NCBI GenBank assembly: GCA_046497275.1
Contig: JAWOFX010000088.1
Coordinates: forward strand, 64,670 to 128,669
Length of the DNA stretch: 64,000 bases
Direction of reading: 5' to 3'
Source of the DNA: Promethearchaeia archaeon
GTDB lineage: Archaea > Asgardarchaeota > Lokiarchaeia > Sigyniarchaeales > SOKP01
Shown here: positions 2,316-44,178 of the stretch, piece after piece
Numbering within the stretch: the first letter of the stretch is position 1
Layout of the letters: the number at the start of each line of letters is the position of its first letter
The notes under the pieces: model-generated
The model's database searches: none
Told to the model about the DNA's origin: nothing
The model's input: only the letters and a program-made list of their open reading frames with translations
Position numbers and translations under genes: made by a program

Positions 2316-5300
2316 ATGTCTGGATTAGATGAAGGTCTTTTAGGACCAACAATCACGAAAAAGCGAGTTATTGCTCTTGCACTAGTCACTATCATAATGA
2401 TCGCTGCATTCGCATACTCTGTAATGATTTATAGCTGGTTATTTGGTTCACCCCGTAAAAGTCCAAATGAAAGATTAGAAGGTGCTCCAGAAGAGGATGC
2501 GTTATTAATTCTTCCTGAATCGGGGTACAATTGGAGTGAATTAGCGGAAAATTTAGATCTCGATGATCCTGATTTACTCGATCAATTGAGAGATTTACAT
2601 GATGGTAATATTGATTTATTAGATCTCTTACAATATGCTGAATTAGCGGCTGCCTTGGCAGGATCCGATATTGAAGTATTTCGAGTATATAATATTCCAT
2701 CCTATGAAGAAGTAAGTGAAAAATTATGGAAGTTTGAATGTTTTGATGAGTTTCTGGGTGATTCTTGGGAATGTAATGTACCTCTCCAAAATTATGATTT
2801 TTATTCATATAGTGATTATTACTCTAAACATTCTGGATTAAATATTTATAATATTTCAATGCCTTTATCTCCCGGTTTAGGTTCAAACTCTTTTATGATT
2901 CCAAATTTGTTCCCGAATCCTTATATCATGGAAAATAGCATTAAAGTTCCAAATATAACTCCCGGATCAGAAGTTTTAAGAAAAAATGCTTTTAATTCCA
3001 CTACATTAACTCTTGATTTTACATCTGAAAATTCTGTTAATATGACATATGAATTATTTGGATTAACATTACCAACTAATACAGAAATTAATAATTCTGC
3101 CTTAGATGAGGATTATACTCCAGCAATCATAAGAGATAGATATCTTCAACTCCCTCCCGATATTTCTACTTATTTAGATTTTAATGTTCACCCAAATATT
3201 AATTTTCATTACAATAATTTAAGAACCATCATAAATGATGAAGATACTTCTTTTGTTGTCGCTAATAAAATCAGAAATTATCTACAGGAAAACTTTAGTT
3301 TTGGATATAATGCTCTTGAAAATTCTCCCCCAGCTGATGGAGAGGATCTTGTGGAATGGTTCTGTTTTCATGAAGAGGGTATTTGGACTCACTTCGCTTC
3401 TGCCTTTTGCGTTTTCTGTAGGGCTTTTGGAGTTTCTTGCAGGTTTGTTGATGGATATAATTCCCGATATGCCGATACGGTAAACGATCCTATAATGGGA
3501 GATGGAATAGCTGTAAAATATAGAAATTTATACAATTGGGCGGAAGTTTACATACCAACTGATGTGTCTGGAAATGGCATATGGGTTCAAATGGATATGC
3601 TTTACGATTCTTTTGGAGGAGGTTCAGGAGTTGGACCAATATTAAATAATTATAATATAACTCTTTCCAGTAATTTTACATCTGGACCTCGAGGATCAAT
3701 TGCGCAACTTAATGCAACCTTGAGTAGTTCATATAATCTTTCTGTTTCTGATAAAAATATTCAATTTTATGATTATACTATGGATGAAATTTTAGGTTTT
3801 AGCACTACTGATTCAAACGGGTTAGCTACTTTCACATTTCCAATTGATGATAATCAAACTGTAGGACCACATATAATATATGCAAGCTATGGTGGCGCTG
3901 CTAATTTGACTTTTTATATCGTAGATGGTGATATACAAGTCAATTTAACCTCAGTTAGCCCACCGCAAGTTAATATTTCCCAAGACCCATATACCACAAT
4001 AAGTGGAACTGTAAGGGATCCAGTTAATGGAAAACCAGTGAAAAATGCAATTATGAATTTAATCTTATATCAAAAAGGTACAAATAATATTGTAAATCCT
4101 TCTTTCAGTCCTTCTTCAATAACAGCAAATGATAATGGAGTATTTAGCCAAACTGTAAATATAGATTCTTCGGTTCCTTATGGACAGTATGAAGTAAGAG
4201 TAGATTTTAATGGAAGTTGGGCTAATCCTTTAAGTCCATCATTTCCTTTCACATATCCATTTATTAACAATTACAGCAACAGATTAGATTTAAACGTTAC
4301 AAAAGAATTAACGTATTCATTGTGGTTTTATATTAATGATATCCCTGCTACTGATAATTCCAATCCCTTGGTATCTCGCTTTTCTACGATCGAACTGAAA
4401 GCGATTGTTTATAATGGAACAGGCGACTTAGCAAAAAATGAAATCATCGGATTTTATGATGGTTCTGGAACTTTAATTGGGCAAAATGTAAGTGATGAGA
4501 ATGGAGTTGCAATTTATAATTATAATGTTGGCATTAATGTTCCAGCAGGTCCAAATCAAATTATTTCCCGAATTGGAACTATTTCTAATAGTTCATATTA
4601 TATTTTAAATGCTCCAATAAATATCTATCCAATAGATTGCCCAAATCCTAATAGTGTCAGTCGAAGTTCTCTAGATGATGAAGATTTCACTATTCAAGGT
4701 TATTTAGAGGACGATTATTCTAATCCAATAAGAAGTGCGATAATTTATATTAATTTATACGATCAGAGTGACTCAGATGTCACATCCCAATACCTTGAAT
4801 ATGTCAGTGGATCTTTTATAACGGATAATAACGGCAACTTTTCTCTGCAGTTTGGAGTAGATAACATTACACCATTGAATAATTATACTCTTAATGTAAG
4901 CTTTTATGGACAATTTAATAATCCTTCTGTCAGTTTTGTTTCTTCTCAAACACAAGAATCTCCTTATGAATTAGAAGTCATTGATCCATATCAAATTGAT
5001 ATTTATTTTACAATCGATGGAACTCCAACAAAATTATTCTATAATGATGGAAATCCGCCTAAACGATATAATCTTGGTGAAAATATAAATTTTGGAGTTG
5101 AAATATATCAAGGTGGCAGTCCTGTTGATAATGACACAGTATATTTCTATGATTATGATGTTAGTAATGATATTCCGTTTCATACATATGAGTTTAATGG
5201 ATTTGAGACACCATTAGGGTATTACAATTTTTCTGTGAATACAGGAAGCTGGAATGCAGGATTACATGAAATTAGAGTAACTTATGGTAATTATGGTGTA

Positions 5301-24300: not shown

Positions 24301-25170
24301 ATGACAATCTACGAGCTTAGTATAATCTCCACCACGGGGTTCCCATATTATAATAGAAAAATTAAACCAATCCCTAAAGGGGTTAAAGTACACTTAAGAT
24401 TCTTTGATTTTTCAGAAAAAGAAGAGAAAGATTTCGATGAAAAAGAGATTTTGGAATTTGATCTTAAAGCTGGATTAATCTCTGCCCTATTTGAATTTGC
24501 TCGTAATATTGATAAAAAAATAGAAGTTTTGGAGTTCCGACCTAAGAAAGGAACTGAAAAGGATTCTTCAATTAATAAAGATCTTAAAATTAAAGGGGAC
24601 GTACTTATTACGGTAACCACAGAAACTTATTTAAACCATAATCAAATCCAAAAAAAAATAGAAAAAATTTACGAGAATTTTATAAATCCAAAAGTACCTC
24701 TAGATTCTGCTTATGAAATATTAACTAATGAAGAGGATTCAATTATACAAATTCTAACTGATGAGAAAGCAAAAAATCATTTATTTAATCATGAAAAAGA
24801 TCTTAAAAAAATCTCGAATAAATTTCTAAGTGAAATGAGTAATTATGGACTTAGGGCAATCATATGCTGTACGTTTGATTTAAGTCCAATTATATGTTTT
24901 ACTGAAAATAAAGAATATAATCTTAATGATGTTGATGAAATTCTAAGAGGTATAGGAAAAATACCTGAAATTGACCCACTTAATTGGAAATATAGGCAGT
25001 CTAATTATGCAGGAAAACCACTCTGGGTTTTCATAATCAATAGTGGAGTCGGAGTCACTGTGGATGGTATTTTTGAAAACTATTTTTATTTGCTTTTAAC
25101 TGAACCAGATAGTTATATGGGGGAATTTCCACGAAGATTAGCCAATGAATTCAATAATTTATTAGGTTAA
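24301..25170 (+). CDS. Hypothetical protein, possible tandem longin/roadblock-like fold
   Basis: 289 aa. The N-terminus IYELSIISTTGFPYYNRKI ... LKAGLISALFEFARNI ... GDVLITVTTE follows the beta-beta-alpha-beta-beta-beta-alpha pattern of longin/roadblock-type domains. A second similar half is present (LRAIICCTFDLSPIICF ... LWVFIINSGVGVTVDG). The fold assignment is speculative. Confidence 0.45.
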   Translation: MTIYELSIISTTGFPYYNRKIKPIPKGVKVHLRFFDFSEKEEKDFDEKEILEFDLKAGLISALFEFARNIDKKIEVLEFRPKKGTEKDSSINKDLKIKGDVLITVTTETYLNHNQIQKKIEKIYENFINPKVPLDSAYEILTNEEDSIIQILTDEKAKNHLFNHEKDLKKISNKFLSEMSNYGLRAIICCTFDLSPIICFTENKEYNLNDVDEILRGIGKIPEIDPLNWKYRQSNYAGKPLWVFIINSGVGVTVDGIFENYFYLLLTEPDSYMGEFPRRLANEFNNLLG

Positions 25171-29139: not shown

Positions 29140-29652
29140 ATGAATTATAATAGGAGCGATTTATTGCTCGCAGATGCAACAATGAATCAATTGCGTAATG
29201 CAATATATCATTTAGCTCGATTTCTGAACAGAAATGGTGTTCAAAATCTAAAGGAACGATTGCGACAAATGGGTAGAAATATTTCAAAAACATATATGAA
29301 ATATTGGATGCCCGTAGATAACGTTAACTTTAATAATATTAGAGAGGTTATTGCTACGATATATAAGGAGGTATTGAAAACCTCTGTATCGGTTGAATTA
29401 AATGAAGTAGAACAATTGATCATTGTAAATGATTCCAATTGCCCTTTATGTAAATATGAATATGATGATGTTGATGTAGCGGGATGTGAAATTATCTTAG
29501 GGATGATTTCCGAATTTATTAATATGATTAATGCCAATTCCAGAGAAAAATCTCTCCTTCTTCTAGAACCGATTAGGGTTCAAGAATCCAAAGCTCTCGG
29601 AAATAATACTTGTGTACAAATTTTCAAATACAAAGCAGGAGGAGTTCAATAA
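29140..29652 (+). CDS. V4R-domain protein (Bet3/TRAPP-related fold)
   Basis: 170 aa with NCPLC ... GCEIILGMISEFINM ... NNTCVQIF, the cysteine pattern of V4R domains. Confidence 0.6.
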   Translation: MNYNRSDLLLADATMNQLRNAIYHLARFLNRNGVQNLKERLRQMGRNISKTYMKYWMPVDNVNFNNIREVIATIYKEVLKTSVSVELNEVEQLIIVNDSNCPLCKYEYDDVDVAGCEIILGMISEFINMINANSREKSLLLLEPIRVQESKALGNNTCVQIFKYKAGGVQ

Positions 29653-31115
29653 TGGGTGCTGTAAAATGGTTAATGAAGAAAATCACGAAAGTATTCGGAA
29701 CAAACACAAGTTCTCTCTTTTATTCCTTGCTTTATAGGGAAATGCTTAAAGAAATAAATAATATTACTCATGATGAAGAATTATCCTTATTGGTTATGAG
29801 AGAGATTGGGAAAAAATCTGCAACGGAATCTTGTGAACGACATTCATCAATATTTAAATTTATGCCCGGAACACCTGAGAAAGTATTAGATTATTTCGAG
29901 ATACTTTGGGTAGTTGTCTTTGGAAAAGAATTAGAAAATCTCTCTTATGAGAAAATCCCTAAAGAGAATTCTCAATATAGTGATTATAAATTAAAAATTC
30001 AAAACTGTCCAATTTGCGCGAGTTATGGTACTGCTCCAGAAGATACGTTTGATGTATCTAAATTGAGTCCGGAATCTGAAGGAATGGCATGTGGCTTATG
30101 CGGAATGCTTCAGAGTGTTGCAAATTTCATTCTAAGAGTAAAACAAAATGATTATAGAATTAGAATGATTGAGCAAAAATGCATGGCTAAAGGTGATGAA
30201 TGTCTTCAATTACTCTGTGAAGTTTATGATTATACAGAATGGCAAGAATTTAAAGCCACGCAAAAAAAGGAGCAATTATTATCCAAAGTATATTTAGAAG
30301 AAGAAGAGGAGGAATTTCTTCCTAAATCCAAATTAGATCTTGTTGATAAACTACAAGATGCCTTTTCATTAGATAAATTAGAGGAAATAATTGATGAGCC
30401 CTTGGAATCGATTAAATCTAGAGTTGCAGAAATAATTCGCGATAAATTGGGAATGGAACCCGAACATTTTTTCGATTATTTCCGAAATTATGAAGATGAC
30501 ATGATACGTATCATTGGGTTTCTCTTTATCCATTTGTTAAATGAATATGGTCGTTTAGTAGAAAAACTTTTAGAAAATGAAACAATCGCAAAAGCTATTG
30601 GATATTTGTTTAAACAATTGAAAGAGATGATTCTTCTTTTCATCCCATTGGATGTCGTTAACGATTATCATACGTTATTAATTGATTTCTTGGATGGCTT
30701 AGCACCTACAGAAATGGTTGAAAATATTAAAGAATTTTCTGGAAAAGATGATCTAAATTATCTTTTTGAAGGGGCGAGAATGGCATTAGAGGATCTAGGT
30801 ATAGATTTTTCCGAATTGAAAGAAAATGTGTGGGAAGAACTTAAAAAGGAGCGTGAAGACGGTCTAATTTCAGCAGATCCTTCTATGATGGATAAAACTC
30901 AAGAAAGAGTCCCGAAAATAATTCGAATTATACAAGAATTAGTTATGCTTCTCACTGAGATTTTAACATTGCCCATACGAGTTGCCATTTCAGAAGGACA
31001 TTATGGAATAAAAACCGCAGTAAATTCGGTAGTTTCAGAAGAGGAAGGTTTAGCGGGCTCCATTAGAAATAGATTTGATAAGATTTTTGACGAAATCCAA
31101 GAATTAAGACAATAA
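29652..31115 (+). CDS. V4R-domain protein with acidic linker and ~270-aa helical C-terminal extension
   Basis: NCPICASYG ... MACGLCGMLQSVANFIL ... EQKCMAKGDECLQLLCEV matches the V4R signature, followed by an EEEEEE linker and a long helical tail. The ATG at 29652 overlaps the upstream stop (TAATG) and is preceded by GGAGG. Confidence 0.65.
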   Translation: MGAVKWLMKKITKVFGTNTSSLFYSLLYREMLKEINNITHDEELSLLVMREIGKKSATESCERHSSIFKFMPGTPEKVLDYFEILWVVVFGKELENLSYEKIPKENSQYSDYKLKIQNCPICASYGTAPEDTFDVSKLSPESEGMACGLCGMLQSVANFILRVKQNDYRIRMIEQKCMAKGDECLQLLCEVYDYTEWQEFKATQKKEQLLSKVYLEEEEEEFLPKSKLDLVDKLQDAFSLDKLEEIIDEPLESIKSRVAEIIRDKLGMEPEHFFDYFRNYEDDMIRIIGFLFIHLLNEYGRLVEKLLENETIAKAIGYLFKQLKEMILLFIPLDVVNDYHTLLIDFLDGLAPTEMVENIKEFSGKDDLNYLFEGARMALEDLGIDFSELKENVWEELKKEREDGLISADPSMMDKTQERVPKIIRIIQELVMLLTEILTLPIRVAISEGHYGIKTAVNSVVSEEEGLAGSIRNRFDKIFDEIQELRQ

Positions 31116-31213: not shown

Positions 31214-31930
31214 TTATGTTCTTAGGCCAAGGAACATCCATAAACTAAAAGTCGCCATTACTAAACGAACAAATCCAATAGCTATTCCAGGATCCAATAT
31301 TGAGTCTAATGCTCCACATATAACAAAAACTAAAAAGGCGATTGAAAGATAAGTAAACTTTCTTCGTAATTCTCCTGTCGCTTGTTTGGCTTTAATTGCA
31401 AACCCTACTCCTTCGAATATTAATACTGTAATCAAAAAAATTGCAACAAGCCAAAATGTTGGGCTAGTTAAATTAAAACTTGAATTTAATAAATCTCCAG
31501 GTCCTAATGGATCAAATTCAAATGTTCCTAATAAAGGTTCAGTGGTAACGCTTGGAAAAAGATACATAAACGCAACGAATACAATCCCCAAAAAACCATA
31601 GATTACAACAATTATTGTTTTCTTCTTCGGAGCGAGAAGTTCGGAACCAAGATACATTGCAATCACTATGGCGGGAGCAACCCATGTATAGCTCAACCAC
31701 CCATAATAGATTTCTGGTTGGATATGACTTTCCAAAAATAAAGCAAATATATATTCAACAAACGGTCCAAGCCAAAATAGCCCGATAAAGATCATCATAG
31801 CTCCCGCATAATATAATAATTTCGCTCCCATTTTTCGGGCATTGATAAATGATAATAAACCGAAAATAACGGAAGTTAAAATGATAATCGATGCTGTTAT
31901 CCCGTCTAAATGACCAATTAAATTTACCAT
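31214..31930 (-). CDS. Hypothetical seven-helix membrane protein
   Basis: 238 aa with about seven hydrophobic helices. No retinal-Lys or other motif recognised. Confidence 0.5.
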   Translation of the reverse strand: MVNLIGHLDGITASIIILTSVIFGLLSFINARKMGAKLLYYAGAMMIFIGLFWLGPFVEYIFALFLESHIQPEIYYGWLSYTWVAPAIVIAMYLGSELLAPKKKTIIVVIYGFLGIVFVAFMYLFPSVTTEPLLGTFEFDPLGPGDLLNSSFNLTSPTFWLVAIFLITVLIFEGVGFAIKAKQATGELRRKFTYLSIAFLVFVICGALDSILDPGIAIGFVRLVMATFSLWMFLGLRT

Positions 31931-31970
31931 ATTTGATTCACTTAAAATTTAGTTAATTTTTATTTTATTT

Positions 31971-31980
31971 CCTAATTAGG
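31971..31980. promoter_or_regulatory. Perfect 10-bp palindrome CCTAATTAGG in a divergent intergenic region
   Basis: Read directly from the sequence. It lies 41 bp upstream of the 7-TM gene start. Related CTAAT-containing inverted repeats occur at 32079..32095 and 32104..32118. Confidence 0.3.
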
Positions 31981-32078
31981 GAATTTAATATTGCAATTAT
32001 TGTTGACAATATATATAATAATTTGTGTGATATTCAAATATATAAAATTAAGGAAAAAAGAAAATTTAAGGCATATTT

Positions 32079-32102
32079 GGAGATTCCTAATCTCCTTTTT
32101 TT
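32079..32102 (+). terminator. Hairpin plus T7 tract (terminator/attenuator-like) in the acylase leader region
   Basis: GGAGATT-CCT-AATCTCC is a perfect 7-bp stem, followed immediately by TTTTTTT. It lies ~100 nt upstream of the acylase start codon. Confidence 0.35.
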
Positions 32103-32198
32103 AAATCTAATTTAGATTCATAATCTTTATTTTTAAATAGTTTGAGATCATAACTATTATTTAATCAAATAATTTAAACCAAAAAAAGCAAAATCACT

Positions 32199-34775
32199 AT
32201 GAGAAACGATTCTCAGAATATTAAAAAAAATACAATAGCGTTTTCTAGTGCGCTAATAGTTACAATTTTATGCTTGGTAATTTTTTCGATGCCCTTACTT
32301 GGATTCTCTTTAGGAAATCTTTTATTTCCTGGGAATGGTCTTTGGACTGTGCCTGGAGAACCAGAGAGTCAACTTATCTATATAGATGGTATGGATGATG
32401 AAGTTACGATTATTCGAGACGAATGGGGTATCCCTCATATTTATGCTACAACTGATAATGATTTATTTTTTGCCCAGGGATATCTCCATGCTCAAGACAG
32501 ATATTTCCAGATGGATTTGATTCGTCGCCAAGTGCGCGGTCAATTATCAGAAATATTAGGAGAGGGTGCCCTAAATCAAGATAAGCTAATGCTTGCGATG
32601 GGAATGGAATATTGGGCAATAAAAACCGACCAAGAAATTAGAGCTAATTATTCTGAATTTTTACCTCCTTTTGAAAATTATGTTGAAGGTATTAATTATT
32701 ATTTAGAAACTCATAAAGATCAAAAACCGGTAGAATACCAGTTACTTGGGTTTGAGCCTAAACCCTGGACAAGCATCGATACTTTATGTCTCGTGCAAGA
32801 AATGGCACGTCAATTATCTTGGAATTATAATGACCTTTATCGGTACTCAAATTGGGCAGGATTAGGAAGAGATAAGTATCTTGAATTATTTAATCCTTTT
32901 CAACCTTATCAAATTCCAATTGTCCCTAATTATTCCAGTTATGAAACAACTCCTAAATTCTCTTCAAGTGGTTCACTAGCGCCCTCATCATTAAAATTGT
33001 CCGTAGATCATCTGATTAGTGGAATAGAAAGTATTGATTCTGAAAAGAAATTGATAGAGTCGCGAGAAATTACAGGTTCGAATAATTGGGTAATAGACGG
33101 CTCTAAATCAAATACAGGTAAACCCATTTTATGCAATGATATGCATCTTTCTTGGATTCTACCTGGAGTGTGGACAGAACAACATTTAGTTTCTGAAGAG
33201 ACAGGTATTAATTCATACGGATTTGCTATTCCTGGAATGCCATTAGTAGCAGTAGGTCATAATGAACATTTGGCATGGGGATTTACAAATACGGGATATG
33301 ATGTTATGGATTGGTATTATTATAACGAGAAGAATAGTACGCACTATCTCTATGAAGGAGAATATGAGTCTTTTGAAACCAGAGATTATACCATAAAAGT
33401 TGCTGGTGAGGAAGATGTTCAATTTACCGTAAGAGAAACAAAAGAAGGACCTGTCTTGACTGATTTTTTGGGTAGTAGAATCCCTTCTAATTTAACCCAA
33501 CCAAATATAATTTTTGCGGCACAATGGATGGGGAATGACATTTTCTATAATCTTTTAGCAGGGGAAGGTTTTAATCGTGCAAAAAATAGAGATGAGTTTA
33601 ATGAAGCCTCCAAATACTGGAGCACTTTAGCTCAAAATATTGTATATGCTGATGTAGATGGAAATATTGCGATACGTCCAACAGGCAGAGTTCCAATTAG
33701 AGATGATTCAAAGATTCCCTCATGGCATTTAGGAAATGGAACACTTCCTTATAATGGTTCTAATGGAGAAGGAAAATGGGTTGATGAAATACCCTTTGAT
33801 CAATTACCTAATAGCTTAAATCCGACGCAAGGATATTTGGCTTCGGCAAATCAAATCGCAGTTGGTCCAGAATATAATTTTAGTAAGTATTTCCTACAAA
33901 ACGAATATGCAAATGGATATAGAGCTCGGAGAATAAATGAGTTGCTAAATACAACTAATAATATCTCAGTAGAGAAAATGATGGAAATTCAATTGGATGT
34001 GAATTCCTCAGCAGCAAAAGCATTTATACCCACTTTAATTGAGGTGATTGAATACACTTATGGGGATACTATTCCGGAGGATCTTGATCAAGCTTTTACT
34101 ATTTTAAAAGACTGGAGATATATAATGGATAAAGACGAAGCTGCTCCAACGATCTATCGAAAATGGCGGGATTATTTTTATGCTTACACGTTCAATGATG
34201 ATATTAGTCATAACAACTTAAGTCGTGGACCTATGCTTGTTATGTTAGAATATTTAATGAATAACAAAACATCCCATTGGTTTAATGATACCTCTACTGG
34301 TACCCCAATATCACAAACTCGAAATCAAACGATGTTATTAGCTTTTAATGATACAATCGATTGGCTGGAAAATTTTTATGGCACTTCAGATGCATCACAA
34401 TGGAAATGGGGAGATATCCATAAATTATATTTTGAACATCTCTCTGGTCTATCCTTACTCAGTAAAGGACCATTTCCTGGTGATGGAGAAGGCTACACAG
34501 TAAATCCTGCGGGAGTTAGTATTCATAATGGTGTCGGTTTAGCTAGAGGGGGAGCATCAGAACGCATGATTGTTGATTTCAGCGATTTAGGAAATTCTAA
34601 GAGCGTCATACCATCGGGCCAATCAGGACATCCGCATCTTAAACATTATTCAGATCAACTTACAGAGTTATTCTTAAAAGGAAAATATCATTCTCAATAT
34701 TTCTATTACACACCAGCAAATTTTCCATCTATTGAAACAAGATTAATCTTTAGACCGGCGGGAGGTGTGTTCTAA
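32199..34775 (+). CDS. Penicillin/cephalosporin/AHL acylase family Ntn-hydrolase
   Basis: N-terminal TM/signal. DEWGIPHIYA..FFAQGYLHAQDRYFQMD (alpha subunit). GSNNWVIDG with the Ntn nucleophile Ser (beta subunit start). 858 aa. Confidence 0.85.
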   Translation: MRNDSQNIKKNTIAFSSALIVTILCLVIFSMPLLGFSLGNLLFPGNGLWTVPGEPESQLIYIDGMDDEVTIIRDEWGIPHIYATTDNDLFFAQGYLHAQDRYFQMDLIRRQVRGQLSEILGEGALNQDKLMLAMGMEYWAIKTDQEIRANYSEFLPPFENYVEGINYYLETHKDQKPVEYQLLGFEPKPWTSIDTLCLVQEMARQLSWNYNDLYRYSNWAGLGRDKYLELFNPFQPYQIPIVPNYSSYETTPKFSSSGSLAPSSLKLSVDHLISGIESIDSEKKLIESREITGSNNWVIDGSKSNTGKPILCNDMHLSWILPGVWTEQHLVSEETGINSYGFAIPGMPLVAVGHNEHLAWGFTNTGYDVMDWYYYNEKNSTHYLYEGEYESFETRDYTIKVAGEEDVQFTVRETKEGPVLTDFLGSRIPSNLTQPNIIFAAQWMGNDIFYNLLAGEGFNRAKNRDEFNEASKYWSTLAQNIVYADVDGNIAIRPTGRVPIRDDSKIPSWHLGNGTLPYNGSNGEGKWVDEIPFDQLPNSLNPTQGYLASANQIAVGPEYNFSKYFLQNEYANGYRARRINELLNTTNNISVEKMMEIQLDVNSSAAKAFIPTLIEVIEYTYGDTIPEDLDQAFTILKDWRYIMDKDEAAPTIYRKWRDYFYAYTFNDDISHNNLSRGPMLVMLEYLMNNKTSHWFNDTSTGTPISQTRNQTMLLAFNDTIDWLENFYGTSDASQWKWGDIHKLYFEHLSGLSLLSKGPFPGDGEGYTVNPAGVSIHNGVGLARGGASERMIVDFSDLGNSKSVIPSGQSGHPHLKHYSDQLTELFLKGKYHSQYFYYTPANFPSIETRLIFRPAGGVF

Positions 34776-34776
34776 T

Positions 34777-35175
34777 ATGGACCAAGATAAAAGAAATTTA
34801 ATAATTGGCACTTTGGTGACTCTGGGTCTTTCATCTCTTTTATCTCTGATTCCCGTATGGCAACTAATTTTTCTTGCAGGTCTAGTGGGAGGTTTTATAA
34901 ATAGAAAAATACTTTATGGTGCTTTAAGTGGTGCTATTGGAGGAGGGATCTTTTGGATTCTTTATATTATAGATGGTGTATTTTATAAAGGACTCTACAA
35001 TCTTTTCGATATATTTGGTGCTTTGATCATTGGTTCTGGAATGGGATGGATTATTTTACTATTAATTATTTTACTAGGATTTATGTTTGGATTTTTAGGA
35101 GGCTCACTCGGAAGCAGCGGAGGAAATTTGTTTTTATATTATTATAATAAACAATCATCCTCAGAAAGAAAATAA
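34777..35175 (+). CDS. Small Gly-rich membrane protein coupled to the acylase gene
   Basis: The ATG lies 1 nt after the acylase stop, with GGAGGTG ~10 nt upstream. Four hydrophobic helices. The track ORF begins at a GTG at 34765. Confidence 0.5.
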   Translation: MDQDKRNLIIGTLVTLGLSSLLSLIPVWQLIFLAGLVGGFINRKILYGALSGAIGGGIFWILYIIDGVFYKGLYNLFDIFGALIIGSGMGWIILLLIILLGFMFGFLGGSLGSSGGNLFLYYYNKQSSSERK

Positions 35176-35268: not shown

Positions 35269-37434
35269 TTATTTTAGTTTATTATTTTCATAGATCTCAT
35301 AAAACCAATCCACAATATATTGATAGAAAAATCTTTCTCGGAGAACGTCATAATGCGATTTTTCTCTAAGACTTGTAAGCTTTGCAATATCCTCTGATTT
35401 GATTTTCGATTGTTTAATTAAATTCATACGTGCTTTAAATTGATCGACCATATCTATCGGCCTTAGTATAATTGAAATCGCTTCTGAAATTGTATCAATT
35501 ATATCATTTAAGTTATCAATACCTAGTGATTTTTCTCGATTCGATTTTAATAAATAAGATTGAATTTTTTCTATGAGAGGATCTTTTCTTTCATAGTTAA
35601 TTAACTCTCTGTTTTTAATTAGATTGTCTAAAAACTTTATAATATCATTAATCACGACTATATCGATATTTAAATTCTCTAATTGTGTTTTCAACTTTAT
35701 TAGAAATTGTCTCTTTAGAAATTGTTTATATTTAATTATAATTGCCTCATTCTCTCTGATATCTGAGCAAACCTCAACTAATTCGCCTTTCGGTGTCGCA
35801 TAAGTGAATCCATGACCTTGCGGCCCTAAACCACCTAATAATACCATTGATAAGCTATGAAATTTATAAGAATCTGTTGATAATATCTCTTGTTCGTTAT
35901 CAAGAATATTCTTAGGGGAAACTAAATGCTTCTTAACTTCTCTCTCTTCTCGTTCTTGCAAAGTTCCATAATAATTTATACGATATCTATACAAAATATT
36001 AAATTCTAAAAAACCATCTTCCTTTAGCTCTTCTCTTCGGCTATTTTTATAATGTTTTTTAAATTCTTTGAGAAAATGTAGGGTTGACCCTAAATTCTTA
36101 ACACTCAATCCATAGATAGAGTATGCATTAAAGAAAGAATTTTTAATATAATAGATAAGTTGATCAATATTACTATAAAATGAATAAGCATTAGGATAAT
36201 TTACAAAATATTCATAAAGATTCCTTGGAAGAACTTTATATACAAAATAAATTAGAAAATCATTTACAGGACCAAAAAGATCTTTTAAATTGGCTAAAAA
36301 TAGTTTATCTTTCTTTATTTTTTTTATTTTTTTTAACTTTTGCTCATTAAGTTCTCTAGTTAATAAATTATATTTATTACAAAATCTTATGGTATCTATC
36401 ACTTTTCCTAGACTGGACGTTTGATATCCGACGGTCACATCTTGAATACAATTGATTATAAGTTGTGAAATAATTTTAAATCGATTTGGAATCTTTTCTA
36501 CTTCAATAAATATATCAAATTTATCCGAATTTTTAATTAGTTGCTTAAACTTATCAAAATGACCCGCTTCTAGATCTTTTGCTAATCCTTTGTAAAAATT
36601 TTCCTCAATTTTCTTTTTATTTTCTGCTTTTAAAAGAATCCGAGATAAATTAATCTCTCCCTCATCTTCAATTATATGATCTATTGTATATTTTATTTTC
36701 TGAAATTCTCCAGATTTTAGAGATTCTATTATTGTTTCAATAATTAATTCTTGAATATCGTTAGTATTTTTTTTTAATTTGTGATGAGAAATTTCATTTT
36801 TCTCTATAAATTTATAGAAGAAAATTAAGTATTTTAAATTTCCAATTCCTAAAAAATAATCAAATGAATCTCTGAATAATTTAGTCATAAAGGTTAAAAT
36901 TCTTTCCTTATTACTTCCCTTTTCAAATGATTTGTCTTCCTTATATTTCTCAATCCAATCTCTTAAATAAATTATAAAAAGAGGTAAATTATCTGTATTA
37001 TAAAAAATCTGAACATTTTTCTGACATCTTCTACAGAAATAAATCATTCTATTTTCATTGAATGCATAAGAACCCTCAGATATATCCTCTGAATGACATT
37101 CAGTACATAATTTTTCAAATAATAATTTTTCGATTAATTCTTCTAAAAATTCAATTTTAAGATTCTTGATAACTTCAAAATCAATAATCTCATTCTCTAT
37201 TAAAACCCAGAGATAAGATCCAAACTCTAAAAAAATAGGTTTGAAGAAACGAATTTTATCAGAATTATCTAACTTTTTATATTCTTGAGTTATATTATAG
37301 ATTTTCTCAGCGAGCTTTATTTCTTTAGTGGCGACTTTCTTTCTAATATCATTTAAATCCAGTTTGCCTTTTTTAATAATATTAAATATATCGTTTTTTA
37401 AATTGCCATAAAATTGCTCAGAGAGAATATGCAT
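35269..37434 (-). CDS. Hypothetical 721-aa helical protein with an internal zinc ribbon
   Basis: Long ORF 77 nt downstream of the Roadblock gene on the same strand. CTEC-x22-CRRC ribbon near aa 110-140. The rest is K/E/I/L-rich and predicted helical. No P-loop or other catalytic motif seen. Confidence 0.6.
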   Translation of the reverse strand: MHILSEQFYGNLKNDIFNIIKKGKLDLNDIRKKVATKEIKLAEKIYNITQEYKKLDNSDKIRFFKPIFLEFGSYLWVLIENEIIDFEVIKNLKIEFLEELIEKLLFEKLCTECHSEDISEGSYAFNENRMIYFCRRCQKNVQIFYNTDNLPLFIIYLRDWIEKYKEDKSFEKGSNKERILTFMTKLFRDSFDYFLGIGNLKYLIFFYKFIEKNEISHHKLKKNTNDIQELIIETIIESLKSGEFQKIKYTIDHIIEDEGEINLSRILLKAENKKKIEENFYKGLAKDLEAGHFDKFKQLIKNSDKFDIFIEVEKIPNRFKIISQLIINCIQDVTVGYQTSSLGKVIDTIRFCNKYNLLTRELNEQKLKKIKKIKKDKLFLANLKDLFGPVNDFLIYFVYKVLPRNLYEYFVNYPNAYSFYSNIDQLIYYIKNSFFNAYSIYGLSVKNLGSTLHFLKEFKKHYKNSRREELKEDGFLEFNILYRYRINYYGTLQEREEREVKKHLVSPKNILDNEQEILSTDSYKFHSLSMVLLGGLGPQGHGFTYATPKGELVEVCSDIRENEAIIIKYKQFLKRQFLIKLKTQLENLNIDIVVINDIIKFLDNLIKNRELINYERKDPLIEKIQSYLLKSNREKSLGIDNLNDIIDTISEAISIILRPIDMVDQFKARMNLIKQSKIKSEDIAKLTSLREKSHYDVLRERFFYQYIVDWFYEIYENNKLK

Positions 37435-37511
37435 AGCTCTACATTTTTATTAGAACAAGATAAGATTAATAAAATTATTTATAAAATAGTATAAGTGGTT
37501 TCAATTTAATT

Positions 37512-37883
37512 TTAATCTAATAACCCAGCAATCTTCTGTGAAACGCTCTGTATATTTAAGAAAACCATACCCAAACTCGATGCCTTCGACGCCAGAACAC
37601 AGAGTATCGCATTTTCGCCCGCACGAGAAAGTATTATAATTCCATCCAATCCCTCAATAAGAATTCTCTTTAAATCTCCTCTCGCTAACTCTTGAACAGC
37701 TCTCTCCGATACGCTAAGAATAGCAGCAGACATAGCACTAACAATACCATCATTCACATCTCCCGAAAGCGCAGAACAAATAGGTAACCCTTGGACAGAA
37801 ACAATCGCACTTCCTTGAATATCGGCATTGATTGCTTCCAAATTTCTCAGAATGTCTGTAAGCTCACTTATATTTTCTGACAT
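37512..37883 (-). CDS. Roadblock/LC7 (MglB-like) domain protein
   Basis: 123 aa. IQGSAIVSVQGLPICSAL ... IVSAMSAAILSVSERA ... IIILSRAGENAILCVLA fits the Robl/LC7 alpha-beta-alpha pattern. Confidence 0.8.
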   Translation of the reverse strand: MSENISELTDILRNLEAINADIQGSAIVSVQGLPICSALSGDVNDGIVSAMSAAILSVSERAVQELARGDLKRILIEGLDGIIILSRAGENAILCVLASKASSLGMVFLNIQSVSQKIAGLLD

Positions 37884-37952: not shown

Positions 37953-38241
37953 ACTAAATTCTTTTAAATTTTAATGTTTATGTATAGAATATTATTAATA
38001 ATAAATCTATATTAATTTTTTGCAAAAAACCATCAATGCATTTTTTAACGAATTTTAAATAATAATCCCCAAATTCTCTTTTTAAACAGATTGAAATACT
38101 TTTTTATAAAATGATAAATCCGCAAAATTATGTATGCATGAGTAATTCAAACTTTTTTTAGAAAAACTGATGGATTTAAAAAATATTATTATCCATTTTT
38201 CATTACCTAACCTAATGAATGAGACACGAAAAGAAAAAGAT

Positions 38242-39195
38242 ATGTCTGAAAAGAAAAATAATTCAGAGATTTCAGAGGAAAATGAAGAGGAGAAGCAATT
38301 AAAATTCGATTCTCTCAGAAAGGCTGGTGAAATAGCGCAAGAAGTAAAGAAATTCATCAAACCGAAGATTAAAATAGGTATGAAAGGATTAGATATAGTA
38401 TCTGCAGCGGAAAAGAAGATAAGTGAATTGGGAGGTGCTTGCGCATTTCCAGTTAATTTATCTATCAATAATATCGCTGCTCATTATACTTCTCCATTTC
38501 GTGAAGATGGATTAACTATAAAAGAAAATGATCTTGTGAAAATAGATTTGGGAGTGCATATTGAAGGATATATCGTTGATACAGCATTCACAGTAAATTT
38601 TAATCAAGATAAATCTCTAGAAAATATAATTACTGCCACTGACACGGCATTGCAAGCAGCAAAAATGATGGTGAAGCCAGGTGTGAACACAAAAGATATA
38701 GGAAAGAAGATAGAAAATATTGTTAGGGGGTTTAATTACAATCCAATTAAAGAATTGGGCGGTCATCAAATAGAACGCTGGAGACTTCACGGAACAAAGG
38801 ATCTCCCAGAATTAGGCTCTCAAGGTGGAGATGAAATAGAGGAAGGAGATGTGTTTGCTATTGAAATCTTTGCATCTACGGGAGCTGGATCGGTTCATAG
38901 TACAAATAGTTGCCATATATATGCGATTAATCCCTATACAGGGCGGGTTCCTTTAAGAAGAAAGAGCTCTAAGCAAATACTGGGATTTATAAATAGAAAT
39001 TATAAAACTCTTCCGTTTGCTGAACGCTGGCTTGGTCAAGAGTTTCAAATAGGGGTTGCTTTCGGAATACAAGAACTTGTCCAGAAAGATAAACTAAGAC
39101 AACATAATGTGCTTTCTGAAGAGAAAGACGCCTACGTTGCACAATCAGAAGAAACAATATTGATAACCGAAGATGGCTATGAACAATTAACATAG
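38242..39195 (+). CDS. map: Methionine aminopeptidase, type 2 (archaeal/eukaryal)
   Basis: AFPVNLSINNIAAHYTS, DLVKIDLGVHIEGYIVDTAFT, GHQIERW and FAIEIFASTG are metal-ligand motifs. I place the start at Met 38242, because the track ORF start (38170) adds 24 implausible residues. Confidence 0.85.
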   Translation: MSEKKNNSEISEENEEEKQLKFDSLRKAGEIAQEVKKFIKPKIKIGMKGLDIVSAAEKKISELGGACAFPVNLSINNIAAHYTSPFREDGLTIKENDLVKIDLGVHIEGYIVDTAFTVNFNQDKSLENIITATDTALQAAKMMVKPGVNTKDIGKKIENIVRGFNYNPIKELGGHQIERWRLHGTKDLPELGSQGGDEIEEGDVFAIEIFASTGAGSVHSTNSCHIYAINPYTGRVPLRRKSSKQILGFINRNYKTLPFAERWLGQEFQIGVAFGIQELVQKDKLRQHNVLSEEKDAYVAQSEETILITEDGYEQLT

Positions 39196-41566: not shown

Positions 41567-41779
41567 TTAACCCGCTGGAGAAAATATTAACGCAAAAATT
41601 CCAAGACGAGCTAATATTACTATAATTATAAGAGATGCAGCAAAAATTACCGTTGCTATTGGACTTATCTTGATACCAATTGAAGAATCTTCGAAAAATC
41701 TCATTAAACCAGCTCCACCCATCGGCATTGGAGCACTTCCCGATCTTCTTTTTTTCCTTCGCGATTGTCTTCTAGACAT
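41567..41779 (-). CDS. Preprotein translocase subunit Sec61-beta
   Basis: 70 aa. Basic N-terminus, GGAGLMRFFED, IKISPIATVIFAASLIIIVILARLG tail-anchor. Collinear with archaeal Sec61-beta. Confidence 0.75.
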   Translation of the reverse strand: MSRRQSRRKKRRSGSAPMPMGGAGLMRFFEDSSIGIKISPIATVIFAASLIIIVILARLGIFALIFSPAG

Positions 41780-41928
41780 CTTTTTTAAATCTATTATGTA
41801 TTATTATATTTAATATAAAGATTTTAACCTAAAAAACTATTTCTCAAAATTTAAACTCGCAAAAAATCCAAAAAGCAAGATTTTTTTAACTCATAAATTT
41901 AATTATCTTAAAAAAAATAAAAATACAA

Positions 41929-42225
41929 ATGCGGATTCGAGAATTTCAAGATTTAATACGTGATCTTTACTTCCATCAAGATTCTAAAAGAGGTTTTAAC
42001 AAATGTTTCTTATGGCTCGTTGAAGAAATTGGTGAATTAGCCAGTGTTTTAAAAGAGAAAGAGTTAAATATAGAATTTATTGGAGCAGAGATGGCAGATA
42101 TAATAGCTTGGATATTCACGTTAGCAAATTTGCTAAAAATAGATATCGAAACGGCTGTGATGAAAAAATATCCTAATAAATGTCCCAAATGTGGTTCTAA
42201 TCCATGTATATGTAATAAAAATTAA
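41929..42225 (+). CDS. MazG-like nucleotide pyrophosphohydrolase domain protein
   Basis: LVEEIGELA ... EMADIIAWIFTLAN (EExxE / ExxD type helices). C-terminal CPKCGSNPCIC. Confidence 0.65.
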   Translation: MRIREFQDLIRDLYFHQDSKRGFNKCFLWLVEEIGELASVLKEKELNIEFIGAEMADIIAWIFTLANLLKIDIETAVMKKYPNKCPKCGSNPCICNKN

Positions 42226-42330
42226 TAGTGAAGATTCTATTATTTTATTTTAAAGCGTGAAGAGAATAAACTTTAATAAATTTTTAAAATTGATTATATT
42301 AATTTTAGTTATTTAGGAAATGAAAAAAAA

Positions 42331-44178
42331 TTGCTAATGTTGAAAAAAAGAAAAATTTACTTGCTAACAACGATTTTCATATCAATCTTTATCATTAGTT
42401 CCTTTATTTCAATATTTGATTATAATACTTGCTATAATCGTTCAAATTATGAACTACCTAAGACAGCTTCAAGCATAGAAGGAGCTTCCGATATTATAAT
42501 CTCTAAAATTAATCGAACTATTGATATAAACGGATTTGGATTAACAAATTTTAAGGATTCTTTAACAATTAAAAATGAATATAATAATCCTGTCTCCTCA
42601 ATTTTGATAGGAATTCCATCTAATATTTATGATGATTTAATATATTATGAAGCAACTGGTATGGGGAAAAATAGTTTATTGGTGGAAGAGACTGATATCA
42701 TAATGGATAATAATAAAATGATGTTAGCAATATATTTTGATTCTCCACTGCTTCCTCAAGAATCTAAATCAATAATTCTCTCCCATTCTTATAAGGAACT
42801 TTTACAATACCAACCCTCAGGGGAAAATCAAAAGATTTCTTTTACTGGAATAGTTTATCCGCTTTTCCCTTATAAAGCAGAAGGATTAATAAAAACAATT
42901 GTTATTCTGCCAATTGGATCGACTATCATTAATTCCGATTTTTGGGGGGAGAATAACGATAATTTAATAATTTATGACCTTGAAGAATTAACCCAATCAT
43001 ATTTAGAACCATTTTTAGAAAACTTAGGGGAAGATAAAATAATTGAGTTATCATTCACCCATCCTTCCAAAACAAGATTGGAAATACAAAAATCCACAAG
43101 GGAAATAACAATTTCCCCGTGGGGAGTGATTAAAGTGAAAGAGAGTATTTTAATTAGGAATCTCGGCTCTATAGATCTTGGAAAATTTAACTTAAAAATA
43201 CCAAAAGGGGCTCGCAATGCGAAAACAACCGATCATTTAGGGGAAATTGATGGAACTACTGTGACAGATTTACCGAATAATCCCAAATCCAAACAAATTA
43301 ATCTGGATCTTACAAATAATAGGGTGACAATGAATCCAGACTCGAGTTTCAGATTTACATTAACATATCAATTAAATCTGGCAGATTATGTATCTTATAA
43401 CTGGTTCAAACAATCAATACAAATGGATATAATAACAACACGCTGTGATTTTTTAGTAAGAGATCAAATTACAAAAATCATCATAGAAAGCTCTCTTAGC
43501 ATAACTGATATTTCTAATCTTCCAAATGAATTTGATGAATCGGTTGCATCTAGCATTCTCGTCTATGAATCAGATTACATTAGCAATATTGAAGAGAATA
43601 AAATTTTATTGACTTATACTCTAGATATTTTTGAAATGTTCCTCAGACCGCTAATAATTTTATTATTAATTGCATCACTGTGTTCGGGGTTTATCCTTTT
43701 TATTAAGAAAAGAAAGCAAATGGGCATTTTACCTATGATTGAAAAAGAAGAGATTCCTATAAAAGAGATCAGAGAGTTTTGTTCACTCTATGAGCAAAAA
43801 AATGCCCTTACATTAGAAATTCGAGAAGCAGAAGAGGAACTTAAGCGACGTAAATTAACTAAAAAACAATATCGTAATCTTGTTGATAAAAATGAATCAA
43901 AACTAAAGGATATTGATGAGGAAATAAAACCTTTTAAGAAAGAATTGATGGAAACAAATCAAACTTTTGAAAGCATGATAAAAAAACTAGATGTTTTAGA
44001 AGCGGAACGGCAAACGGTCGAGGATGGATTAAAATTATTGGAAAGCAGATATAAAAAAGGGAAACTTCCTTCAAGATCAGCTTATGTAAAATTAACCAAT
44101 GATTTTTTAAATAGACGAAAAAAGATTGACAGAACAATATCTCGTTTTATACAACAATTACGTTCTTATCTCCTTTAA
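42331..44178 (+). CDS. Ribophorin I / OST1-like protein (oligosaccharyltransferase accessory subunit homolog)
   Basis: Signal-anchor, INRTIDING near the N-terminus, and TREITISPWGVIKVKESILIRNLG. The last aligns by eye with human RPN1 [24 protein letters not shown]. A single late TM and a cytoplasmic coiled-coil tail reproduce the ribophorin I architecture. The start could be TTG 42331 or ATG 42337. Confidence 0.65.
   Translation: MLMLKKRKIYLLTTIFISIFIISSFISIFDYNTCYNRSNYELPKTASSIEGASDIIISKINRTIDINGFGLTNFKDSLTIKNEYNNPVSSILIGIPSNIYDDLIYYEATGMGKNSLLVEETDIIMDNNKMMLAIYFDSPLLPQESKSIILSHSYKELLQYQPSGENQKISFTGIVYPLFPYKAEGLIKTIVILPIGSTIINSDFWGENNDNLIIYDLEELTQSYLEPFLENLGEDKIIELSFTHPSKTRLEIQKSTREITISPWGVIKVKESILIRNLGSIDLGKFNLKIPKGARNAKTTDHLGEIDGTTVTDLPNNPKSKQINLDLTNNRVTMNPDSSFRFTLTYQLNLADYVSYNWFKQSIQMDIITTRCDFLVRDQITKIIIESSLSITDISNLPNEFDESVASSILVYESDYISNIEENKILLTYTLDIFEMFLRPLIILLLIASLCSGFILFIKKRKQMGILPMIEKEEIPIKEIREFCSLYEQKNALTLEIREAEEELKRRKLTKKQYRNLVDKNESKLKDIDEEIKPFKKELMETNQTFESMIKKLDVLEAERQTVEDGLKLLESRYKKGKLPSRSAYVKLTNDFLNRRKKIDRTISRFIQQLRSYLL

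Follow-up and report, generated by a model that had tools for sequence, protein, structure and literature searches.

Which partner does a Roadblock/LC7 protein serve when the gene beside it encodes a large protein of no familiar kind? The question is raised by a 64,000-nucleotide (nt) stretch of an Asgard archaeon (Promethearchaeia archaeon, assembly GCA_046497275.1, contig JAWOFX010000088.1, positions 64,670 to 128,669), which we refer to as the window and which is AT-rich (~30% GC). The pair comprises the following features (aa, amino acids).

37512-37883, minus strand: Roadblock/LC7 gene, 123 aa, Pfam PF03259, a full-length MglB/LAMTOR2-type protein.
37435-37511, minus strand: intergenic spacer of 77 nt leading from the Roadblock gene to the large gene, with a T-rich, TATA-like element at ~37466-37487.
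35269-37434 (stop codon included), minus strand: large protein, 721 aa, placed by homologue searches in an undescribed Loki/Hel-type Asgard family.

We tentatively read the pair as an ancestrally linked, facultative module of Loki-type Asgard archaea, in which a Roadblock platform is combined with a partner from a new protein family; this is the reading we prefer, and we give it somewhat less than an even chance. The Roadblock dimer would serve as a docking platform and the large protein would be one of its clients, a scaffold or effector subunit. The complex would regulate one or more small GTPases encoded elsewhere in the genome, and a neighbouring TRAPPC3-like gene pair may take part. The identities of the genes, the conservation of their arrangement, the novelty of the family and its conserved module are shown; contact between the Roadblock and the large protein, the involvement of a GTPase and the direction of regulation are what we infer; the Roadblock superfamily provides both platforms for and regulators of small GTPases (PMC10933270), which supports the reading.

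The arrangement itself is as an earlier note on this DNA had described it. A 123-aa Roadblock gene is followed after 77 nt by a 721-aa open reading frame (ORF) on one strand, and we confirmed both the coordinates and the minus strand. The large ORF has no P-loop (no [AG]xxxxGK[ST] motif in its sequence), and it is rich in K, E, I and L (44.7% of residues) and mostly helical in the predicted model, again as noted. A single Cys4 motif is present as well, but its spacing had been miscounted: it reads CTEC-x20-CRRC (C110, C113, C134 and C137), not CTEC-x22-CRRC. The description is confirmed except for this spacing, and the interpretation attached to it is partly supported. The GC content of the Roadblock gene is 40%, compared with 25% for the large gene and 30% for the window.

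A six-frame scan of the whole 64-kb window for P-loops revealed only three ORFs, a MoxR AAA+ ATPase and two Rad51/RadA-like proteins, and no small GTPase, in agreement with the earlier note. Among the related loci compared, no GTPase was seen flanking the pair either. The note had contrasted the missing GTPase neighbour with the usual prokaryotic arrangement; the absence is real, but it is the usual state in Asgard archaea. Since Asgard Roadblock genes generally lie outside GTPase operons (Tran et al. 2024, PMC10933270), the missing neighbour is no anomaly in itself. Asgard GTPases are generally encoded apart from their Roadblock, longin or TRAPPC3 partners (PMC10933270), and their absence from the window is therefore no argument against a module.

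The window Roadblock gene is a normal member of its family. Its product matches Pfam PF03259 with E=6e-16 and 58.3 bits (gathering cutoff 23), residues 20-98 covering profile positions 13-91 of 91. The nearest solved chains are 9jue_D (E=8e-27), Thor-RB 7f8m (E=4e-18) and LAMTOR2 (E~8e-4), and CvnB5 was also matched. The alignments span residues 7-123 with 9jue_D, 2-118 with Thor-RB 7f8m and 16-116 with LAMTOR2; matches to dynein LC7 span only residues 5-77. Judging from these spans, the protein is of the full-length MglB/LAMTOR2 type with a predicted C-terminal helix, and not of the truncated LC7 type. The Roadblock protein in PDB entry 9JUE is ~50% identical to that of the window, and a PDB sequence search showed that this entry holds no relative of the large protein. 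Roadblock homologues form at least 350 clusters at E<=1e-10; the 120 best ones listed share a length of 123 aa and are 81-100% identical. The window copy starts with ATG; most relatives apparently start with TTG, behind a conserved leader with a GTTGAT motif resembling a Shine-Dalgarno (SD) sequence.

We counted linkage in 80 loci (numbered with the prefix L) from species-representative genomes, in which 82 genes of the large-protein family are readable; three of these lie at contig ends and were left out, leaving 79 assessable genes. A Roadblock gene, nearly always of 123 aa, lies immediately upstream on the same strand in 59 of the 79, and 20 are unlinked. The spacer has a median of 73 nt (range 10-208 nt) over 63 linked pairs, which include the window and the first four loci. 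Independent look-ups of metagenome contigs gave further linked pairs, and one Roadblock cluster has the large gene downstream in all six of its contigs. In a rough neighbour-joining tree of the family, the Helarchaeota forms fall outside and are unlinked, whereas a basal Loki-type branch (L082/L084) and the main clade are linked. Several genomes, e.g. those of L026 and L083, hold a linked copy together with an unlinked paralogue. Taken together, the linked basal branch and main clade and the genomes with both types of copy indicate ancestral linkage of the orthologous line, with loss in duplicated copies. Adjacency and co-conservation in relatives, which had been proposed beforehand as a test of the pair, are thus both seen, with 59 linked cases. 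The pairing persists while the large protein diverges to ~45% identity.

Several findings nevertheless weigh against a dedicated partnership, and they give substance to the main rival explanation, which we consider doubtful but serious: the two genes may be neighbours by descent only, in a slowly rearranging housekeeping block, each with its own promoter and without interaction between the products, the Roadblock having other partners. A monophyletic clade of paralogues is almost wholly unlinked, occurs sometimes in tandem arrays and lies in unrelated contexts. A subgroup of ~760 aa (L014, L015, L018, L100 and L101), nested in the main clade, has been relocated elsewhere, and a remote branch is unlinked like the Helarchaeota forms. 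In four loci from Loki's Castle-type sediment contigs (L090-L093), the large gene is missing. The Roadblock gene directly abuts the convergent neighbour in L090-L092, and an unrelated 363-aa gene is found there in L093. The 324-nt gap in this lineage (~4373-4696) holds a 43-codon C-terminal relic at 4524-4652, which corresponds to query residues 672-714 (49% identity, E ~1e-7) and contains an internal stop codon. Since this degraded relic lies at the same position, the large gene was deleted in place, and the ancestral site is revealed. The Roadblock of the relic lineage has the consensus residue at each of the 64 positions where conservation among linked Roadblocks is 97% or more; either it is independent of the large protein, or these genomes have the large gene as a relocated copy elsewhere. 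Relocation and deletion of the large gene have thus occurred without change in the Roadblock. The unlinked paralogues also keep the invariant site described below, so the core activity of the large protein does not need a dedicated Roadblock gene. Finally, the two proteins evolve at very different rates, the Roadblock retaining 82-93% identity and the large protein 45-55% across the same spread of genomes; slow evolution of the Roadblock would be expected if it served several partners.

The spacer bears on the same issue. In an alignment of 42 distinct spacers, anchored on the start codon, a T-rich, TATA-like element has its centre ~36 nt before the ATG of the large gene, and no SD-like motif precedes this gene. 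The leader of the Roadblock gene is its own, is better conserved than that of the large gene and carries the GTTGAT motif. The spacer may plausibly contain an internal promoter, an oligo-T terminator or both, so that the two genes are not necessarily co-transcribed. A scan for sigma-70 promoters and terminators is not applicable to archaea and was not used. Rfam returned 0 matches to structured RNAs in the spacer or the window.

The surroundings, too, are conserved. The pair sits in a syntenic block of ~14 genes, in which adjacency alone is weak evidence. One side of the block carries ribophorin I, Sec61-beta, MazG, DUF354 or radical SAM, GT4 and a divergently oriented methionine aminopeptidase (MetAP). 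The other side is convergent and carries a pair of genes of 170 aa and ~490 aa, followed by thioredoxin, a ferredoxin-like gene and TIM. In the window the MetAP gene is annotated as follows.

38170-39195, plus strand: type II MetAP, divergent neighbour, NCBIfam TIGR00501 (288.8 bits, cutoff 222.65).

MetAP lies divergently upstream of the Roadblock gene in 53 of 54 assessable loci, a linkage as tight as that of the pair. What descent alone does not readily explain is that the co-directional arrangement with its ~73-nt spacer has been kept over deep divergence despite an insertion hot-spot just downstream of the large gene. None of the 63 pairs has an insertion between the Roadblock gene and the large gene, the largest spacer being the 208 nt given above. 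We put functional pairing forward as a hypothesis, with some of the evidence speaking against exclusivity. As regards the new regulatory pair that the earlier note had envisaged, the adjacency and the novelty of the family stand, and the idea of a dedicated pairing is weakened by the facultative linkage and the in-place gene loss.

The unlinked copies have contexts of their own. Tandem arrays of two or three paralogues occur in L076 (2209-7293), L078 (5809-9007) and L080 (5866-9065), beside ORFs that, from a reading of their N-terminal sequences, resemble ribosomal protein S8e, HypA and a proteasome subunit. The relocated ~760-aa copies (L015, 4985-7109; L018, 284-1687 and 9004-11128; L100, 2136-3539) lie near other GTPase and Roadblock genes. 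Their products are a 363-aa protein with a Zn-ribbon, a long linker and a divergent Roadblock domain, a protein of 312 aa whose P-loop is of the Arf type (GLDxAGKT), and a 467-aa GTPase that matches Arf and Gtr1/RagA in Pfam. They are paralogues different from the window Roadblock, and since such genes are common in Loki genomes, the proximity may be due to chance.

The partner belongs to a family of restricted distribution. A word-indexed search yielded 64 homologues of the large protein, and an exhaustive profile search of 1.84 billion representative proteins yielded 99 family clusters and nothing beyond the family. All named members are from Asgard archaea, most of them under the label Lokiarchaeota or Promethearchaeota; among the named full-length members, the most divergent are from Helarchaeota. 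The term 'Asgard-specific' used previously is therefore right for the named members, and Loki/Hel-type Asgard is the more precise description. Some family-bearing assemblies are labelled Thor, Odin, Hermod or Hod. Because their synteny is near-identical to that of Loki loci, and because almost identical loci carry conflicting phylum labels (L003/L008, Thor; L063, Hod), we do not trust these labels.

The large protein has no significant match in Pfam, NCBIfam or PADLOC, and among PDB sequences no match was found with either the single sequence or the family profile as the query. Together with the Foldseek searches described below, these results place the ORF outside any known family in the resources searched, which had likewise been named beforehand as a test. 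Pfam gave no Ras, Arf or Roc match for the large protein, and when 28 family members were scanned singly, we found scattered sub-threshold matches with no Pfam family in more than three members. No viral relatives were found in 2.9 million viral contigs; with PADLOC also negative for both the large protein and the Roadblock, a defence or viral origin was rejected. We also rejected a DENN/FLCN-like protein, as neither the query nor any of the 28 members has a Pfam DENN match; a chain of the FLCN GTPase-activating protein (GAP) complex (8dhb_I) appears in Foldseek only at E=0.78 with a probability of 0.04. The known Asgard LAMTOR1-Rab-DENN operon was discarded too, there being no GTPase and no DENN signal here. 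Our literature search found no paper describing this family or this neighbourhood. The novelty lies in the protein family and in its ancestral link to a highly conserved Roadblock.

A single outlying match concerns P0157, a 518-aa peptidase C25 encoded on a 1.7-kb ENA contig, whose C-terminal ~47 aa resemble a helical stretch of the family (profile positions 344-390, E=2e-4). Chimeric assembly or chance may account for this resemblance. In L086/L087, the Helarchaeota homologue also has a C25 peptidase gene ~3 kb away.

Family members fall into two size classes, short forms of ~430-540 aa and long forms of 720-764 aa. The short forms match query residues ~270-721 at ~50% identity, and the N-terminal ~266 aa, including the Zn-ribbon, are therefore an extension confined to a subset. 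An AlphaFold2 model of the 721-aa protein, built from 55 sequences, has a mean predicted local distance difference test score (pLDDT) of 81.9 and a predicted TM-score (pTM) of 0.70; aa 420-721 modelled alone give a pLDDT of 81.2 and a pTM of 0.77. In the model, helices are followed by a beta Zn-ribbon (aa 107-146), a helical arm up to ~aa 432, an alpha/beta part (aa 437-557) and a helical bundle (aa 559-720). The parts of the large gene are located as follows.

36637-37434, minus strand: N-terminal extension, aa 1-266, helices and Zn-ribbon, absent from the 430-540 aa short forms.
37024-37107, minus strand: Cys4 motif CTEC-x20-CRRC, aa 110-137, predicted Zn-ribbon.
36139-36636, minus strand: helical arm of the conserved core, aa 267-432, all-helical in the model.
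35761-36138, minus strand: alpha/beta module, aa 433-558, with H503, E554 and C556, assigned from the secondary structure of the model.
35791-35835, minus strand: invariant Gly-rich loop GGLGPQGHGFTYATP, aa 534-548, from the cross-clade alignment.
35272-35760, minus strand: C-terminal helical bundle, aa 559-721, with invariant D664, Q665, R669, H694 and R701 (motif KSHYDVLRER), from alignment and model.

The N-terminal extension is homologous among all long forms and lineage-specific, and it was never found as a separate gene in the loci examined, including those of genomes with short forms. In the consensus of the long forms, all four Cys residues are kept, and Foldseek finds a local match to a RING-type protein in BFVD (probability 0.94, 52 columns). 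The Cys4 region is accordingly modelled as a Zn-ribbon with two CxxC knuckles on beta hairpins, and metal binding is predicted. The ribbon had been presented as a trait of the large protein, but being confined to the extension of a subset it does not characterize the family.

Fold searches were carried out with Foldseek against PDB and BFVD, and 'no known fold' here covers solved structures and viral models only. Against PDB, the best match of the full-length model has E=0.25 and a TM-score of ~0.1, the matches being generic PPR, TPR and PCI helical repeats hit by the helical arm. Against BFVD, the best E-value is 0.035 and the Zn-ribbon/RING match is the sole credible local one. The model of aa 420-721 gave a best PDB match with E=0.013, a probability of 0.18 and a TM-score of 0.12. 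The alpha/beta module has an alpha-beta-beta-alpha-beta-beta... topology that is superficially Roadblock-like; a cryptic Roadblock/longin domain was nevertheless rejected, since hhalign against the Roadblock profile gives a probability of 0.3% and Foldseek no significant match. A CATCHR/exocyst tether is not supported, as there are only scattered Pfam matches (E 0.04-0.7) in 5 of the 28 members.

We consider it very improbable that the large protein is an extremely divergent member of a known family that the tools have missed, such as a DENN/longin GAP and guanine-nucleotide exchange factor, a CATCHR tether or a PCI/TPR scaffold. The sub-threshold Pfam matches in those five members, to exocyst and ZW10 helical domains, would fit this idea, as would the helical-repeat proteins at the top of the Foldseek results, with BBSome BBS2 at E=0.013; but no match is significant or consistent, TM-scores are ~0.1, the Roadblock comparison fails as stated and the 1.84-billion profile search returned the family alone.

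To identify conserved positions, we aligned 22 sequences drawn from every clade. Residues F387, H503, G535, G537, P538, G540, G542, F543, T547, P548, E554 and C556 are invariant, as are A564, L581, I656, D664, Q665, R669, L689, H694, L698, R701 and F703. The site residues are invariant also in the unlinked paralogues and the Helarchaeota forms. The C-terminal ~300 aa form the unit that defines the family, with an invariant GGxGPxGxGF-Y-TP-GE-E-C loop and invariant His, Cys, His, Asp and Arg residues. Two remote relatives from less AT-rich organisms, P0128 and P0155, keep the pattern H...GG-GP-G-G(F/L)-Y-TP-GE--E-C ... TH-D-L--R-F, and their N-terminus has a different array of ~37-aa helical repeats in the position of the helical arm. 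The Gly-rich loop is the sole low-confidence stretch (pLDDT <50) inside the confident module. We read these invariant residues as a putative site, intrinsic to the large protein and defining its family, for ligand or metal binding or for catalysis.

Roadblock proteins are known to regulate NTPases, and by this logic the large protein might itself be the regulated enzyme or switch, its Gly loop, His/Cys/His residues and acidic/Arg cluster forming a metal or nucleotide/phosphate site of a new fold that the Roadblock modulates. We judge this unlikely. It is consistent with the invariance of H503, the G535-C556 loop residues, D664, Q665, R669, H694 and R701 in every clade, most of which are kept in P0128 and P0155, and with the predicted flexibility of the Gly-rich loop, which would be typical of a ligand-binding loop. 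However, Foldseek detects no similarity to a known nucleotide-binding or hydrolase fold, and the paralogues keep the site without an adjacent Roadblock. The GxxGxGF loop presumably resembles the G2 box of GHKL proteins, a weak lead that finds no backing in the other GHKL motifs or in the fold search. For a GHKL-type ATP lid, G1 and N-box motifs in register are lacking, and Foldseek gives no Bergerat-fold match. The boldest reading, which we regard as improbable, makes the large protein the founder of a new fold that binds nucleotide or metal through the GGxGPxGxGF loop and the His/Cys/His residues. Its complex with the Roadblock dimer, which might also include the TRAPPC3-like pair, would be a Loki-specific switch or exchange factor without eukaryotic or bacterial counterpart. 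If true, this would be a Roadblock-regulated machine built round a protein without a P-loop.

The convergent neighbours suggest yet another arrangement. Their features in the window are as follows.

29140-29652, plus strand: 170-aa TRAPPC3/V4R-like protein, convergent neighbour, identified by its family profile against TRAPPC3 structures.
29652-31115, plus strand: 487-aa partner of the TRAPPC3-like protein, its start overlapping the stop of the 170-aa gene by one base.

The family profile of the 170-aa protein matches the Thorarchaeota TRAPPC3 structures 7yh2 and 7yh3 with E=1.3e-6 and 2.6e-6, respectively; the single sequence matches Pfam TRAPP with E=0.018, which is below the cutoff. Residues C101, C104, C116 and C158, putative Cys ligands of a TRAPPC3-type Zn site, are invariant in this family. 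The 487-aa protein is 65-74% identical in most relatives (78% mean column identity) and belongs to no recognisable family, a PDB profile search giving only ARL2BP at E=0.19. Its start was listed as TTG at 29610, which is probably wrong, the ATG at 29652 being the start used by orthologues. In 49 of 56 assessable loci the pair is found within 6 kb downstream; it is displaced in 20 loci and absent within 6 kb in 7 of the 56. Homology of the large protein to these TRAPPC3-like neighbours was rejected by hhalign.

TRAPP is a Rab exchange factor (PMC8204870, PMC10152722), and we counted the TRAPPC3-like neighbour in favour of the module. In a more specific proposal, which seems to us quite unlikely, the four proteins would form a proto-TRAPP-like exchange factor, with the 170-aa and 487-aa proteins as Bet3/TRAPPC3-like subunits, the Roadblock dimer in place of the longin pair and the large protein acting like the large specificity subunits of TRAPPII/III. 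TRAPP consists of longin pairs flanked by Bet3-family subunits, together with large subunits (PMC10933270; PMC8204870), and the match to solved Asgard TRAPPC3 (E~1e-6), the stop-to-start overlap of the two conserved convergent genes and their persistence beside the Roadblock where the large gene has been deleted all suit this scheme. Yet the TRAPPC3-like pair lies on the opposite strand and is often parted from the large gene by insertions. The TRAPP nature of the 487-aa protein is not established (hhalign, E=0.024, probability 2%; ARL2BP match as above), the large protein has no similarity to TRAPPC8-11, and for Asgard TRAPPC3/V4R proteins Tran et al. prefer a role in ligand binding (PMC10933270).

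Returning to the facultative module, we compared it with known systems. MglB-MglA and the Streptomyces conservon (CvnB with the CvnD GTPase) share with it a full-length MglB/LAMTOR2-type Roadblock, which aligns end to end with solved Asgard Roadblocks; they differ in that here no GTPase gene is adjacent or in the 64-kb window, and the partner has no P-loop and no known fold. Ragulator, in which LAMTOR1 holds the LAMTOR2/3 and LAMTOR4/5 dimers, would follow the same logic if our inference is right, namely a non-GTPase scaffold positioning GTPases encoded elsewhere, and LAMTOR2 is the closest eukaryotic match to the window Roadblock (E~8e-4). LAMTOR1, however, is a short, extended wrapping peptide (PMC10933270), whereas the partner here is a folded multidomain protein of 450-760 aa with an invariant polar site. 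No homology of the large protein to Ragulator or TRAPP subunits was detected. The neighbourhood described by Liu et al. (10.1101/2020.10.19.343400), in which a LAMTOR1-like Roadblock stands with a Rab-like GTPase and a DENN protein, is likewise a conserved Asgard Roadblock locus with a larger putative regulator, but it has the GTPase and the DENN protein, and here there is no P-loop and no DENN protein in Pfam or among the Foldseek matches listed. The likeness to TRAPP consists of a TRAPPC3-like conserved neighbour, the longin-like platform fold of the Roadblock and a large helical protein. In contrast to TRAPP, the genes lie on opposite strands, the large protein is unrelated to TRAPPC8-11 and the locus has no longin subunit. 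In Myxococcus, MglB and its co-regulators form a bipartite Roadblock GAP complex (PMC9481161), an earlier example of a Roadblock protein that works with an accessory protein other than a GTPase. That system still centres on an identified GTPase, and we found no sequence or fold relation to the large protein.

Asgard archaea have dozens of Roadblock, longin, TRAPPC3 and small-GTPase genes, which are rarely encoded together, and for this reason it cannot be said which of these partners work together (PMC10933270). A Roadblock kept beside one partner in ~60 genomes at species level offers a rare genomic clue to such pairing; the partner family is well folded, has no relative that could be detected and carries a putative ligand site of striking invariance. 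Should the two proteins bind, they would offer a tractable system of two to four proteins, open to recombinant expression, for studying how Roadblock platforms were used before eukaryotes. If they do not, the family would still be a clean target for a new fold or function, with limited relevance to eukaryogenesis, since it is restricted to the Loki/Hel branch and lacks homologues in eukaryotes.

The hot-spot between the large gene and the TRAPPC3-like pair (window positions 31214-35175) contains an 858-aa penicillin amidase (PF01804, E=2e-196) and two membrane-like ORFs, of 238 aa and 136 aa. At least ten other loci (e.g. L005, L006, L010, L028, L035, L038, L068 and L094) also have penicillin-amidase genes in this slot, and in many other loci the convergent genes are only 3-56 nt apart. 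Further along the block, a 289-aa ORF (24301-25170, plus strand) is kept, with genes of the same length in L001, L002 and L004; searches of Pfam, NCBIfam and PDB sequences gave no significant match for it. At the far end (41567-44178) lie Sec61-beta (70 aa, PF03911), MazG (98 aa) and a ribophorin I-like protein of 615 aa (PF04597, E=3e-18) whose C-terminal tail is a coiled coil. The Sec61-beta and ribophorin I-like end of the block carries genes of eukaryotic-type protein translocation and N-glycosylation.

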